22,556 nucleotides of DNA, from contig CAVYAN010000007.1 of assembly GCA_963766075.1 (NCBI GenBank), positions 1-22,556 on the forward strand, read 5' to 3'. Shown here piece after piece: positions 3,001-18,000 of this stretch; the first letter of the stretch is position 1, and each line of letters starts with the position of its first letter. The DNA is from an uncultured cyanobacterium (lineage in GTDB: Bacteria > Cyanobacteriota > Cyanobacteriia > Leptolyngbyales > Leptolyngbyaceae). A program made the position numbers.

Positions 3001-6000
3001 TACAATCTCAGCCGCCGTGGCATTGAATGGGATGTGCTGCCATTGTGTCGGCAGGAAAGGATTCCTGTGATGGCCTATTCCCCGATCGAGCAAGGGCGGT
3101 TGCTGCAAAATCCGGCATTGAGTGCGATCGCTGACGCGCTTAAACGTCACTCCCGCGCAAGTTGCGATCTCATGGCTGCTGCATCAAGACAATGTCGTGG
3201 TGATTCCAAAATCGAGGCAGCGCGATCGCATTGGAGAAAACCATGCGGTATTGGAGATGACGCTGAGTCAAGCTGATTTGGTGGCATTGGATAAGGCATT
3301 TCCGCCGCCTACGCGATCACAACCCCTGGAAATGCTGTAGGTAGGTAGCAGATCGTGGAGCCTCAAAAATGAGGCGTCTAGACTGTGGCGATCGCTCAGT
3401 CACGCCCTGGGCGAAAAAGTCACCAAATCAAATTTCAGGGAAGCCATCCACCGCCACCATCAACGCACCGGACGCCGAGACAGCCAATCTTTGGATGCCT
3501 CGTAGCTTCCGTCGTGCCAAACCGCACATCGACCACTGACCATCCCGCATGAGTAGAGGCAGGGCATGAATGTAGCCTTCGCGCCGTTGGTGCGCAGTTT
3601 TTCCAGCTTTGGCTATTTATTTAGCATCAACGAGTCCGTATCCGTTAATTGGATCGCCGATACTGCCCTCAAGCAGGTGATCACGAATTTAGTGACCACG
3701 GCTCCCTGTCCCCAGCCAGATGTCTGGGCGCGGTACTTTCTGCTTCAGGTGCGAGCCGAGGATTGGGTCACCCTGATTCCCTTGCTGCATCCGGAAGCAT
3801 GGCAGCATCCCGTCAAAGCCGCGATCGCCCAGTTCCGCCGGATTCCCCGACAGGCTGCACTGTATGCCGTGGCACAGCAGCGCATTGACCAAGCCGCCCA
3901 ACGGATTCTCGCTATTGCCCATAAACACTATCAAAAAGGTGAACTAGAGCAGGCGATCCGACTGGCTCAGGCCACGCCCCAGTCGAGTGTTTTGTATACG
4001 CAAGGGCAGGAAAAAGTTCAGCAATGGGTACAAGTTTGGAACAAGGATAAAAATCATTTCGCGAAGGCGACCCAAGCCAACGCCAAACCAACCCAAATCC
4101 TTAAAGAACGCGAACAAATCAAGCATCCCTATTGGAAGCAGAAAGTCGGACCGTTAGTGGCTGAAACTCAAGTGGCGTTGCAATCGCGAGCGATTCAGCG
4201 CCAGTCAGCGATCGCTGCGATCGCCCCACCCACCTATCTGGCCCACGTACCGGTCTTGGCCCCAGCCAACGATCCGCCTCCGCCAGTTTACCAGCCCGCT
4301 CCAGCGCCGATGAACGCAGCACCGGTGAATACAGCGTCGGTGCGATCTCGCCCTCCTGCGTCCCAGCCCGTTACATCCACTTCAGCATCCGCCGAAATGT
4401 TCAGCGTTTTATCTCGGCTGCCACTCAGTAAAAACTGACCATCCGGGCTATAGGCGACGGAGGTGACCACGTAGGTATGTCCGCCTTGGGGAGTGCCGTA
4501 GCGTGATCTCACAATGGCCTGCGGGGTTTCCCATACGGGATCTGCTACAGGTTGACCGGAGGAATTACCACTTGGTGAAAGATAGTTGGAGAGCTGACAG
4601 CGGGTGGTCTGTTCACCAACGGGGTGGGCCAAGGCAACGGATTCCAGCCCAGTCAGAGAAGTCGCCGTCAAAATCAGGCTGAGAAAAAGTGCCGCAAGAA
4701 AGCGAACGCCAAATTTAATCGACGGATAGAACTCTAGCTAGCTGACACCTACACTGAGCAAGGGGTTGGGAAAGTATCATTAAAAACTAATCGGAGTGAG
4801 TGAGCTTACGTGCTATCACGAATTCAACACGTGATATTCGCTACATTCACTTCTTCGGAGAGGTGGGCATCCGTCAGGATGACTTATCTCTAGTTTTGAT
4901 GAATTTCCCATTGGAGAGAAAATATCGGGTATTCCTGTCTGCTGGGAGATCTTTCCGATAACTGCATCAATCTGAACTGCTGCGATTTTCCAGGATCCTG
5001 AGTCGCGCTACTTTCTCAAGCAACTGCTGGCTAACCACGTCTCACCGATCTTGATCAGTACGGTTTTGGCTGTAAATTGCTTAGGGGCTGTAAAGAAGCA
5101 ACTTCATGGCTTTAGGTGAGAAGTCCTAGTCATAAGCGTAGAAGATGCTTGAAACTATGGAGTTATTTTTTACAGCGCCTTAGGTGAGATCAGGGGGGCG
5201 GAGATTAGTAAAGTTGGTTGCACCGTAATGTCGATCAATCGTTTTGGCACTGGTTCCGGTCCATCTGCCAATAGCCGTACTATTAATATGAGCCTCTACA
5301 CACAAGCTAATGAACGTGTGCCTGCACTGATAACTCTTTCGATATGGAATATTACTCTTCTCCAAGATAGACTGCCACGCTCGGTTTGCAAAATTATGTT
5401 GGTCAAGGAATTTGCCCTTGGGGCTCGGAAATAAAAATCCTTCAGGGTTGTAAATTTCTTCTCTTAAATCATCCAAAATAGCTCTAACTTCTGGTGTCAT
5501 GGGAAAATCTCGCTTACGCTGAGTCTTTAAACCCTCTTTCAGAACTAGACCCTTTTCAGATACAACCACCGACTGCCTAAACTTGACCACAGATTCACCA
5601 ATGTGCTTCCACCGCAACGCAATCGCCTCAGAAGGGCGAGCACCCGTGAAGAAAAGAAATTTTACGTAGTTCGTGTAGTGCTTGTAGTAGCGATCGCTGG
5701 CAAAGCTGGCGATGATCAGGTCACGCTCAGCCTTGGTGAACGGATTGACATCCTCATCTTCAGATACCCCTTTGGGAACTCTGAGCTTCATGGTCAGAAA
5801 AGGATTGTCTTGAGTGAGCCCCTCTTCCACGGCCCAGTTACAGCATGCTTTTAACTGAGTCAAGCACCGCTTAGCGGCATCCGGCGTAAGAGTTGCCAAT
5901 AGATGGTCACGGATAAGCGTGGCATCTTCCAACGATTGGCTCGGAAACCTGCCAATATGATTTTTGTGTTTGGTGAAGTCCTTTGCGTAGGTACTGGGAC

Positions 6001-15000: not shown

Positions 15001-18000
15001 ACAGGCAGCGCTGTGAGGTTCTGTTCATGCCGCTACCTCTGGCAATTCGTCCCGAAACCCTTCGTAGACTGAATCCTCATCAAGGGAATAGATGCCTTCC
15101 AGGATTTGATGTCCCAGTGCGATCGCTAACTGGATAGCGGGCAATGGTTCTGCAAAGTCTAGAAATTCCTCGATCATCTTGACCGCATCGCATTCGTGAA
15201 AATCGAATGGGTCGGTCATCTCGATAAATTCGTAAAAGCTGCTGCGGTCAACTTCTTCCACCGACGCGCAGTAGTTCACCCAATCCCCGATAACCATGAT
15301 TAGCTGGCTTTTCTCGGATAGGGGCAAGCTCTCTAGGCGCGGCCCGTAGGCGTTGGCGGCTTCTGCAAAATCAGCGTCGTAGGTGGATAGCAGACTGTTT
15401 TTCGTTACCATTGGAATACCTCAAAGTGTTGATAGTTCGATGTTCTGGGGTGCTAAGCCTGCCTGTGATTGGTAGTCGGGGCAGGCTTTTGCATTGATGC
15501 ACGGGAATGGTCTAGAGATGGAAAACAAGTCACGGGCAACCTCAAAACCCTCTAGCTCCAACCATTCGATGACCCAATCGGTTTCAGTGCCAGACAGCGG
15601 CCCGTCTACTTGTGGATCGAACAAATCGGCGTGACTGGCAATCCGCCATAGGGCATCGGCGCGGCCACTGGGGCTGATGGAGCGGTTGTAGTGGGTTACT
15701 TGCCGTTGGACGTAATCGGGGGTGTAAGCCTTCATTGGGTTCTCCTGTGGTTAACGAATCTAAAGTCCTTCAATCGGCGGTCTGGGCTTCTTGGCAGTAC
15801 TGGGCAGTGCTGTGACACTAACGGGCGCTATCGAGTCATTTGGAACAGGTTTAGGCGGGTTAGTGTCACTAACGGGCGCTATCGGGATGTTTTGTCCTGT
15901 TAGTAAACTGGATAGCGTCACTACCGTGCCGATTGATGAGGTATTCAAGTAAAAACGAGGGTTCAAGGTTTGCTTGGTCGGAGAGGGCATAGAGGCGTTG
16001 CCGTGCCCTCTCGCTTAGCCTGATTCTGGGTTCTGCCATCACAACCCCATGCCTAAAACGGTGATGTCCTGCGGTTGGGGCACAACCTTAAACCGTCCTT
16101 TGGTGCGGTGCTCCATGGACTCAGCCAGAGAGGCAGAGCCACCCACTAGAAGCACTTCACCCAGATCCGACAGGTAGGGTTGCCATGCGGCAGTAGCACT
16201 AGTGCGGATGTCATCGATCCAGGTATCGCGGCATGAGGCAAAGTGAGTCACAAAGCTGGAACCGTTACGCCCAATCTTGAACGAACCGTTTTCGATGCCG
16301 TCCATGATTTGAGATAGGTCAGCACTGATGCCCGTTTCCTTGAGCAACCGTGCCTGAATCGCTTGAGCCAGCTTGTTTGTACCGGGCAAGGTGATAGAGG
16401 CATCGCGCAGATTCACACCCTCAGCAGAGTAGAGCCGACCGCTAGAAGTCCCACCGCCAAAGTCGATCACCCCGTTGACGGCATCGTCAGCCCACTGGTA
16501 AAGCCCATTGGTAACCCCATACAGGTAAGCGGCGGTGCTTTCCTCCACTAGAACCACATGGGCGATAGTGACAATCAGGGCTTGACCGTTGCGGGTGTAT
16601 TCGTGGGTGCCGGTCAGTGCTTTGCCTGCTGCGATCGCATCTGGGTTGCGGGTATCGGGTACGGCAATCTTCAGGGTTTCTACTCGGAATGCCGAATGCC
16701 CAAAAGGTGCTTCCAGCGCGGCGAAAACGGACTCAGACAGCATCGATAGCTTGCCTTTGTCGAATGCACTGCGGTGCCCTGATTGAGCTTTAGCGGCTTG
16801 CCCAATGGCGTAGGTTTGGCCGTCACGCTCAATGATGACGGTATCGGCACCGGGCGCGGGTACATCTTCCCAGCTTGTATCGAAATGGCGGATCACATGG
16901 GGCATCCGTATCAAGTCCCCATTCACTGAAATGTACTCTAGGTAGCGGTTCCCGGCGTTTAGCAAGACTTCAGGGCGAATCTTGGCGGTCCAAGAAAGTG
17001 GTTTTTGAAGTGGGGTCATCATTGGTTTTAGGTAAATAAAGGTGCTGTGGGCAGTTTTGAGCCATACCTAGGGCGTGTGAAATTAGGCGGGAGCAGATAA
17101 ATACGTAGTTTTGCTAGAGCCGATTGCCCGCGCTTGTATTGAAGTGAGTCGTAGGGGTTGTAATCCAGTAATTGGGTTCCGACATACTCTTGATCAGTCG
17201 TGACGATCGTGGTCCCAATGTATTCAGACCCGAATTCTGTCGGCAAGTTGAATCCGGTCAATATAAATCCACCGTTCAATTCCTGGATGAATTGATCATC
17301 TGGCAGCGTGCGGCAGAGGACTGGACTTGAGAAATCGTGATCATGGTTTTGACCTTTGGATAGAGGTTTACAGTGGGCAGTTTTTAGCTTGAGGGCGTGC
17401 GAAATTAGGCGACGACCTTGGGAGAATTCTTAATCCGACTGTCCAGTTCATCAAAATCAATCAGTGATTCAGCAGAGCGGGGTAGTCTGAGCACTGGGAT
17501 TAGGGGTAAGCACAGCCCGTAGCCAGCCAGCCAAGGAATCAGGATGGCATTGCAATAGTTCCGGGTAGCTCTGGCAGCGTCGATTACGGAGCCACAGAAG
17601 GAGCAGAACGCGGTCCAGAACCAGCGAATGTCTTGCAACATCCCGGTTACCCGAAAATCAATCTCGAAATCGTTGCCTTCGGACATGCAAACCGTAACCA
17701 AATCAACATGCTTAGCGATCCAGTATCCAAACGAAGCGGCGAGGAAGAGTGAAAGCATTGGTGTAGTCTCCAGGGGTAAAAGGTTTAAGGGTGGGGCTTT
17801 TTTAGGTGGCCCCGGTCTGGTTGGAAAAGTTGTTAACCCGGTTCAACCCTGCCGGGAAGCCTTTTACGGGGCTTGGGCGGAACCTTTGGTTTGCCGGGGT
17901 TCAGTCCGGGAGGCGGTTGTCTGTCCCGCTTGAATCTAATGTAATTCAATAGCAATACGATTGCAATACTATTGATATTCAATCATCTTATATATCTGTT

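Follow-up and report, generated by a model that had tools for sequence, protein, structure and literature searches.

The window analysed here (22,556 nucleotides, positions 1-22,556 of contig CAVYAN010000007.1) contains a three-gene module on the reverse strand, composed, as the preliminary description of this DNA had reported, of a small anchored protein, a polytopic membrane protein and a membrane-anchored ATPase. The small protein (14720-15028) is anchored at its N-terminus and has a conserved Cys/Gly domain in the alignment. The polytopic protein (13865-14698, true start probably near 14600) has five hydrophobic peaks in its family alignment and an all-helical model, whose best fold match (Z 7.4) is to unrelated helical proteins; no clear match was found, and none that is VirB6-like. 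A fourth conserved gene (15025-15411, reverse strand), predicted to be soluble and present in 15 of 35 loci, lies upstream of these and had been overlooked, as had the repeat array described below. The ParM-like actin identified earlier at 16039-17022 (reverse strand) was confirmed (phrog_691, E 1e-13) and has a homologue in 17 of the 35 loci. Neither Pfam nor PHROGs assigns a family to the module proteins, sequence searches against solved structures returned nothing useful, and the ESM Atlas yielded no usable match for the polytopic protein, while the small one matched nothing there but clusters without a name (0.76). A complex prediction for the ATPase and the polytopic protein scored 0.00 with an uncertain partner fold, and we count it neither way. 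The ATPase has other neighbours in five of the 35 loci, and neither a gene for a substrate nor one for a partner nuclease is conserved beside it. No passage on a neighbourhood of this kind was found in the CorMR preprint.

The ATPase coding sequence is broken near 13670 and again near 13466, where one frameshift had been described: tblastn of the intact relatives P0003-P0006 matches three frames, with the N-terminus and its membrane anchor in two of them (13466-13808) and the last piece (12136-13467, both on the reverse strand) comprising a linker, an FtsK/HerA-type motor (Walker A GxQRTGKS, Walker B ILVVDE) and a C-terminal domain with predicted winged-helix topology (about 12145-12381). The copy in the window is either broken or mis-assembled. 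The ATPase of the module is 340-690 residues long and has the layout anchor, linker, motor, linker and predicted winged helix, and the alignment has one hydrophobic peak, the N-terminal anchor, which in the window is present but split off. The fold assigned earlier was borne out, with Z values nearly as first quoted and a model pLDDT of 90.9: the top ten rows of the fold search all belong to the FtsK/HerA superfamily (Z 12.2-15.7), and the core is closest to VirB4 (Z 15.7, rmsd 3.6, 201 aligned), HerA (14.3), TcpA (13.8) and FtsK (11.7). Further matches are HerA defence complexes (13.9), EccC (13.4) and STIV2 B204 (12.9), with sphaerolipovirus and A32 ATPases among the viral ones; Foldseek alone ranked RecA-like folds first. 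Walker A K24 and Walker B E108 are invariant across 147 ATPase sequences. In the FtsK/HerA superfamily an arginine finger and a sensor glutamine are expected after Walker B; the window's clade has GxKR, and a proline replaces the sensor glutamine, neither expected residue being in its usual place, and in a second clade, which keeps the glutamine, the finger position is mostly Asp, Gly or Asn. The FtsK_SpoIIIE profile (PF01580) matched neither the window protein nor 59 representatives (E 0.05-0.1). The modelled RecA-like core, together with the Walker residues, places the ATPase in the FtsK/HerA superfamily. For the C-terminal tails, the one model (that of the window protein) predicts helix-strand-helix-helix-strand-strand at high pLDDT, and none of 26 tails reached the Pfam cut-off for a winged helix.

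Outside the module, a tyrosine integrase (5180-6373, reverse strand) does lie beside a tRNA-Phe 3' copy, the putative att site (6573-6622, reverse strand; 25-nt match to a relative's tRNA-Phe), and no full tRNA-Phe occurs in the assembly of this genome. The integrase is downstream of the 3' copy and hence outside the module-bearing segment, unlike in complete relatives, where it is inside the att pair; it may be part of a neighbouring element or mark an attP junction. A repeat block at 10755-11184 matches, at 87%, the end next to the att site in a sister element that lies on another contig of the genome, C6, and with the integrase position this led us to abandon the view of 5180-17022 as a single element. 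The scaffold-like and HTH/terS-like genes (7070-8403, forward strand) do have matches, which are weak (scaffold E 4.7e-4; terS-like over residues 1-61 only). At 19373-20901, two inverted copies of an RHH-type gene, 96% identical, flank a tRNA-Pro together with 86 bases of host DNA that also occur on C6; comparison of the arms gives 25 substitutions and no gap, so they are two diverged copies, not the assembly fold-back suspected before. A NikA-like match on 19373-19948 (E 0.0024) is below the cut-off and was rejected as a sign of an oriT. No primase is assembled in the window, and no relaxase was found in its genome (85% complete). The preliminary description is partly confirmed: it holds for the integrase, the tRNA-Phe 3' copy, the ParM-like and module genes, the fold and the 16.7-kb relative, and is corrected on the frameshift count, the integrase placement, the weak scaffold- and terS-like calls, the fold-back and the general absence of relaxases.

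The module is real and widespread, occurring in 19 of the family's 89 genomes and, in a second family, in 43 of 251; hosts are cyanobacterial, and the named plasmid hosts are filamentous genera throughout. Four complete relatives have a tyrosine integrase and an att pair at a tRNA gene. One of them, in genome G039, is the 16.7-kb element at tRNA-Ala, whose length, site and content (integrase, VapE primase, module, ParM, terS) agree with the earlier account; its direct repeat, given there as 29, measures at least 45 nt. A search of 139 ORFs, from four att-bounded elements plus two small contigs, gave no relaxase or type IV secretion family, so that "relaxase-free" stands for the four tRNA-bounded elements. 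As a marker of relaxase-free tRNA satellites the module fails: it is also seen on MOBP and conjugative plasmids and in prophages, beside tape-measure, baseplate and hub genes, a MOBP relaxase and MobC lie 3-6 kb from it in two loci (L024, L036), and 15 of 23 module plasmid records are mobilizable or conjugative. The complete non-mobilizable plasmids AP018200 (17.3 kb) and AP018303 carry the ATPase and an array. Replication proteins of the carriers are VapE, DUF3854, DUF3987, DnaB-like or Prim-Pol, and ParAB or ParM often adjoins the module. Among module neighbours, the Pfam profiles detected no type IV secretion family. Scans of IMG/VR, JGI metagenomes and phage records, based on few peptide patterns, returned no module, and literature searches found no such module or element.

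Directly 3' of the ATPase stop lies a bipartite repeat array (12001-12129), a candidate clt-like loading site, which in the direction of the gene consists of six copies of GGGGA(T/C) followed by eight inverted copies, and which has the highest array score among the 50,272 200-base windows of the genome. Downstream of it is a small gene (11623-11943, reverse strand) that also follows the ATPase in loci L028 and L040. Array scores of at least 8 were obtained for 17 of 35 ATPases of the family and for one of 499 other genes, itself a second family ATPase; in a second set the numbers were 4 of 23 ATPases and 2 of 622 other genes. Nearly all arrays (33 of 34) start within 30 bases of the ATPase stop, 22 of the 34 have a single polarity switch, and the words are 5-7 nt long. 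Many members lack an array, among them the three genes carried by the alpha plasmid of Nostoc PCC 7120.

The presence of repeats varies with the ATPase tail. With tail classes and a six-copy threshold that were chosen after inspection of the data, repeats were found 3' of none of 13 ATPases with no tail, a helical tail or an HNH tail, and 3' of 32 of 34 with other tails. A common word is present in 14 of 27 same-tail pairs (the other 13 have none) and in 2 of 17 pairs with close motors and different tails. The motors of loci L021, L024 and L025 share 71-74% identity. Tail types 2, 3, 7 and 8 are found in both motor clades, and one short word is kept in many copies while the motors diverge to 15-21% identity. 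In these sequence comparisons the repeat word follows a swappable C-terminal tail and not the motor, and it is absent without that tail, as for Streptomyces TraB and clt, a layout by which whole double-stranded DNA is passed from cell to cell. Tail and array are adjacent, and linkage alone could therefore make both travel together. From the co-variation and the gene content we infer that the tail may bind the repeats and that transfer may be of double-stranded DNA and independent of a relaxase.

We propose, with about as much confidence as doubt, that the module is a self-addressed pump for double-stranded DNA that spreads its element across septa along the filament, entry to the filament being by other routes. 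The membrane-anchored ATPase would read the array behind its own gene through its tail, the oppositely oriented halves of the array would load motors onto both arms of a circle that stays uncut, a passage through the septal membranes would be formed or positioned by the polytopic and small proteins, and the excised, replicated element would be pushed into the adjoining cell. A new filament would be entered by the element's other means (helper phage, its own virion or a relaxase). The anatomy, the fold, the array, its match with the tail and the occurrence on many types of replicon are established; binding, pumping, channel and septal site are all putative parts of this scheme.

The strongest competitor, though unlikely in our view, is that the pump binds the array and, like chromosomal FtsK, clears or sorts element DNA at the closing septum between daughters. 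Fold and layout are those of FtsK, the single polarity switch resembles KOPS, the oriented sites of FtsK, and the module occurs on unrelated replicons; yet ParM lies beside it in 17 of the 35 loci, so partition is often already supplied (by ParM or ParAB), the module is retained on integrated elements, and two additional membrane proteins would be required for a task that FtsK performs alone. The dependence of the array on tail type, and the retention of one word by strongly diverged motors, argue against reading the array as only a terminator, or an RNA structure that came along with the tail, although as RNA it does fold into a strong hairpin (z -5.8). The companion idea, that the ATPase exports proteins as EccC does or serves exclusion or defence, fits the EccC and HerA defence-complex matches and is opposed by the lack of a conserved substrate or partner-nuclease gene; we consider this explanation very improbable.

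An equally poor prospect is a tailless virus with a membrane, its genome packaged or extruded by the ATPase and the array serving as packaging signal. The STIV2 B204, sphaerolipovirus and A32 matches would suit such a role, as would three 18-20 kb elements with endolysin or fibre genes, an unknown conserved block and no terminase or capsid match. That block is missing from the 16.7-kb element and from AP018200, however, the module also adjoins tape-measure, baseplate and hub genes, and sequence searches gave no hit to a jelly-roll capsid gene beside the ATPase and no capsid match for two candidates. Least credible of all is a coupling protein with a stub channel for relaxase-dependent single-strand transfer, the relaxase acting in cis or trans: the TcpA match, the two loci with MOBP and MobC and the many mobilizable or conjugative plasmid records speak for it, but complete elements and the window's genome (85% complete) are without a detected relaxase, and what a coupling protein reads is the relaxase, not repeats that follow its gene.

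Returning to the proposed septal pump, we tentatively suggest, with slightly more doubt than confidence, that a transfer system for double-stranded DNA that needs no relaxase has arisen in filamentous cyanobacteria themselves. It would have evolved separately from Streptomyces TraB, out of another FtsK/HerA lineage, would be addressed by an exchangeable combination of tail and bipartite array, and would carry plasmids, satellites and prophages through septa along a filament and perhaps between filaments. In the accessible text of a 2012 review, elements with FtsK-type double-stranded transfer are almost confined to Actinomycetales (PMC3429521), and that of a 2025 review names for cyanobacteria only the hypothetical MPF_C (PMC12282955). 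If correct, this would be a second, independent system, in a two-membrane host; it would explain how cyanobacterial plasmids and prophages classed as 'non-mobilizable' take over a filament, would demonstrate that septa of cyanobacteria let DNA pass, and might be put to use in distributing constructs through filaments. Some carriers can be cultured (AP018200, AP018303, NC_003276), and tail-word pairs are open to direct binding tests.

Several known systems share parts of this arrangement. Phage satellites at tRNA genes (PICI-like) have the integrase, primase and small terminase seen within 16.7 kb in G039, whereas here the module is an accessory that plasmids and prophages carry as well, and the window has no assembled primase. 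The cyanobacterial MPF_C secretion system shares a VirB4-like fold and cyanobacterial mobile DNA, but comprises VirB4 and eight families, including VirB9/VirB10 homologues, in the part of the source available (PMC4027160), against three or four genes here. Archaeal Ced/Ted DNA import likewise combines a small membrane protein, a polytopic protein and a VirB4/HerA-like ATPase with no relaxase; as far as the accessible text goes, those systems are chromosomal, with a 6-7-helix VirB6-like channel and a pilin (PMC9905601), whereas the module is on mobile elements, has a cis array and has no VirB6-like fold match. AICEs share the tyrosine integrase and att pair at a tRNA gene of the four complete relatives, and differ in their RepSA/RepAM rolling-circle initiator, where the cyanobacterial elements use primase-helicases, and in their actinomycete hosts. 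There is a close likeness to Streptomyces TraB/TraA, clt and Spd (pSVH1, pWTY27, pIJ101; AICEs), in the portions of the sources available: a membrane anchor, FtsK-type motor and C-terminal winged helix (a predicted one in the cyanobacterial ATPase), one operon with genes for small and four-helix membrane proteins (a likeness of layout), and spread proteins that occur on phages too (PMC4447253, PMC3583192). Short repeats adjoin the gene there as well, the pWTY27 clt overlapping the end of traA much as the array lies at the ATPase end (PMC3583192). The earlier TraB/Spd analogy, in which transfer was and is a conjecture, is thus strengthened by the finding of a clt-like array that goes with the tail of the ATPase, while its framing as a single, relaxase-free tRNA satellite is not retained. 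Relative to TraB and clt, the cyanobacterial ATPase has no FtsK_SpoIIIE match and works in a host with two membranes, its array is bipartite with shorter words where clt has 8-bp direct repeats, and its tails are swapped between motor clades.

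The region 3' of the ATPase stop codon was inspected as a test of the TraB idea, and in the window it carries an array (12001-12129) of six GGGGA(T/C) repeats followed by eight inverted copies, the highest-scoring such array in the genome's 50,272 windows. Arrays scoring at least 8 lie behind 17 of 35 ATPases as against 1 of 499 other genes (this single gene being a second ATPase of the same family), and in a second set behind 4 of 23 ATPases as against 2 of 622 other genes; the difference is explained by clustering the tails, the swappable C-terminal domains of the ATPases. Elsewhere in the genome, contig C48 (45601-45800) has another strong array of the bipartite kind (CAACC, score 12). 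Eight of the 35 loci (the window at approximately 11945-11975, L024, L025, L027, L028, L033, L037 and L074) have an (A/T)ACTATT box 144-188 bases 3' of the ATPase stop, often followed by a ribosome-binding-like AGGAG; the box may be a promoter of the next gene.

The array corresponds to the tail. Of 13 ATPases with no tail or with a helical 'KF' or HNH tail, none is followed by at least six copies of the repeated unit, or word; among the 34 whose tail is of any other kind, 32 are (10 near-duplicates of 57 were dropped, the truncated loci L142 and G545 and also L039 had been left out earlier, and the threshold and tail class names were chosen after the data were seen). With identities taken from one global alignment, the motors (RecA-like cores) of L021, L024 and L025 are 71-74% identical and come with three different tails and three different words; L021/L073, and L027 and L029/L034, have a word in common and like tails on motors 17-21% identical. 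The word is common to 14 of 27 same-tail pairs, as compared with 2 of the 17 pairs that have close motors and different tails and 45 of the 452 remaining pairs; 14 word-sharing same-tail pairs were reached in none of 5,000 label shuffles, though kin are not independent. Four tail types are present in both motor clades, and the plasmid AP018200, examined afterwards, combines a type-4-like tail with the type-4 word (judged by eye). Linkage and RNA folding remain alternative causes of the match.

The motor model (pLDDT 90.9) aligns best with VirB4 (Z 15.7, rmsd 3.6, 201 residues), followed by HerA (Z 14.3), TcpA (13.8), EccC (13.4), STIV2 B204 (12.9) and FtsK (11.7); this settles the superfamily of the ATPase, not its job. 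Past the motor, the predicted structure has a disordered linker and a C-terminal domain with winged-helix topology. The polytopic protein is modeled as an all-helical bundle, with no clear match in the fold search, and the small protein, which has a conserved Cys/Gly domain and a single hydrophobic segment, may face the periplasm.

The module is real, widespread and unannotated; the literature searched, covering few subscription journals, yielded no paper on it in cyanobacteria, look-ups by sequence and by position likewise gave nothing, and tables in genome papers could list its genes. At E 0.001 the window ATPase has matches in 19 of the 89 other genomes of its family, some through the tail only, and the ATPase profile retrieves 768 clusters at 50% identity. 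In an even phylum sample of 401 genomes, with only three to six candidates scored in each, the ATPase profile matches 6 genomes and the polytopic one 7, all within two families; in the second of these families, 43 of 251 genomes match the polytopic profile. In 25 of the 35 ATPase-picked loci the small and polytopic genes are immediately upstream, the other ten being cut by contig ends (two), having similar-sized genes missed by the profiles used (three), or having other neighbours (five); when loci are chosen by the polytopic gene instead, 22 of 24 have all three genes. The named plasmid hosts are all filamentous genera; this does not extend to several genome records that are 'Synechococcales' MAGs or lack names. 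Variants include six related prophage-like regions in one MAG (L050-L055; tail-less ATPase, different upstream genes), ATPases with the array and a different downstream partner set including an M23 peptidase (L057, L059, L061), a diverged trio on the Nostoc PCC 7120 alpha plasmid (NC_003276, L162:7080-10026, WP_010999622 to WP_010999624) with a helical tail and no array, and an HNH-type-tail ATPase on a 35.5-kb circular replicon with two tRNA genes beside an integrase (NZ_CP017600, L041:3418-5472).

The window is a poor example of the module. Its minus strand encodes a ParM-like actin (16039-17022), a soluble protein that is conserved (15025-15411), the small anchored protein (14720-15028), the polytopic protein (13865-14698) and the ATPase. 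Intact relatives match the ATPase in three frames, which shows that its gene is broken twice, near 13670 and 13466. Since 2 of 17 conserved host genes tested in this genome are also frameshifted and no sequencing run is listed, the breaks may come from decay or from assembly error. The integrase that the preliminary description placed in the module's element is a real gene, but its place is outside the module segment, downstream of the 3' copy of tRNA-Phe, unlike in all four complete relatives, where it is inside the att pair. Contig C6 holds a sister element whose att-proximal end is 87% like a block at 10755-11184, and the stretch is a mosaic. In this genome (85% complete; the window spans the entire contig C7) no VapE primase, no PF03432 relaxase and no DUF3854 primase was found, the DUF3854 control giving no signal anywhere. 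Two inverted IS copies with transposase, 99.5% identical, bound the contig (496-1822 and 21231-22556); two inverted, diverged copies of an element gene flank a complete tRNA-Pro and 86 bases of its host flank (19421-20898), and the same flank with a tRNA-Pro 3' copy borders a sister element on C6 (3669-3815).

Four elements, of 16.7, 23.6, 19.4 and 18.4 kb, have a tRNA at one end and its copy at the other; together with two small contigs, one of them only partly covered, they gave no relaxase or T4SS family among 139 ORFs of at least 70 residues. Among 221 of 270 listed neighbour ORFs (host genes, IS and duplicates removed by eye) and 12 of a plasmid, two are MOBP relaxases, separated from the module by 3 to 6 kb, and the 23 plasmid records with the ATPase comprise 8 non-mobilizable, 7 mobilizable and 8 conjugative ones. 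Four loci have tape-measure, baseplate or hub genes near the ATPase, and three have endolysin or fibre genes with no terminase match. Carriers thus being a mixture of plasmids, phage-gene loci and tRNA elements, the module is a passenger of many replicon types and does not mark a single satellite class. Three tRNA-integrated elements of 18-20 kb (L122:9982-17666, L120:5510-14018, L077:11343-19410) share a conserved gene block of no known family (proteins of about 800-885, 215-273 and 159-171 residues) alongside fibre-like genes and an endolysin; no terminase or capsid matched in them, and they are possibly proviruses of an undescribed tailless type.

The module is not accompanied by any gene for an outer-membrane component or a pilus. 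This suits passage across septa within a filament, whose cells have their outer membrane in common, better than passage between filaments, and accounts for the other entry routes that its carriers keep; Spd homologues on actinophages have been given the same reading (PMC4447253). The element's DNA would then spread along the filament through septa after entering by those routes, and we give this spread about an even chance of being what the module drives. A service to inheritance at division is distinctly less probable; packaging of a virus genome and the absence of any DNA role are each improbable, and a coupling role for a relaxase slightly more so.

The closest analogy is the Streptomyces TraB/clt/Spd system, like which the module may work, although its sequence, host and replication each set it apart from that system.
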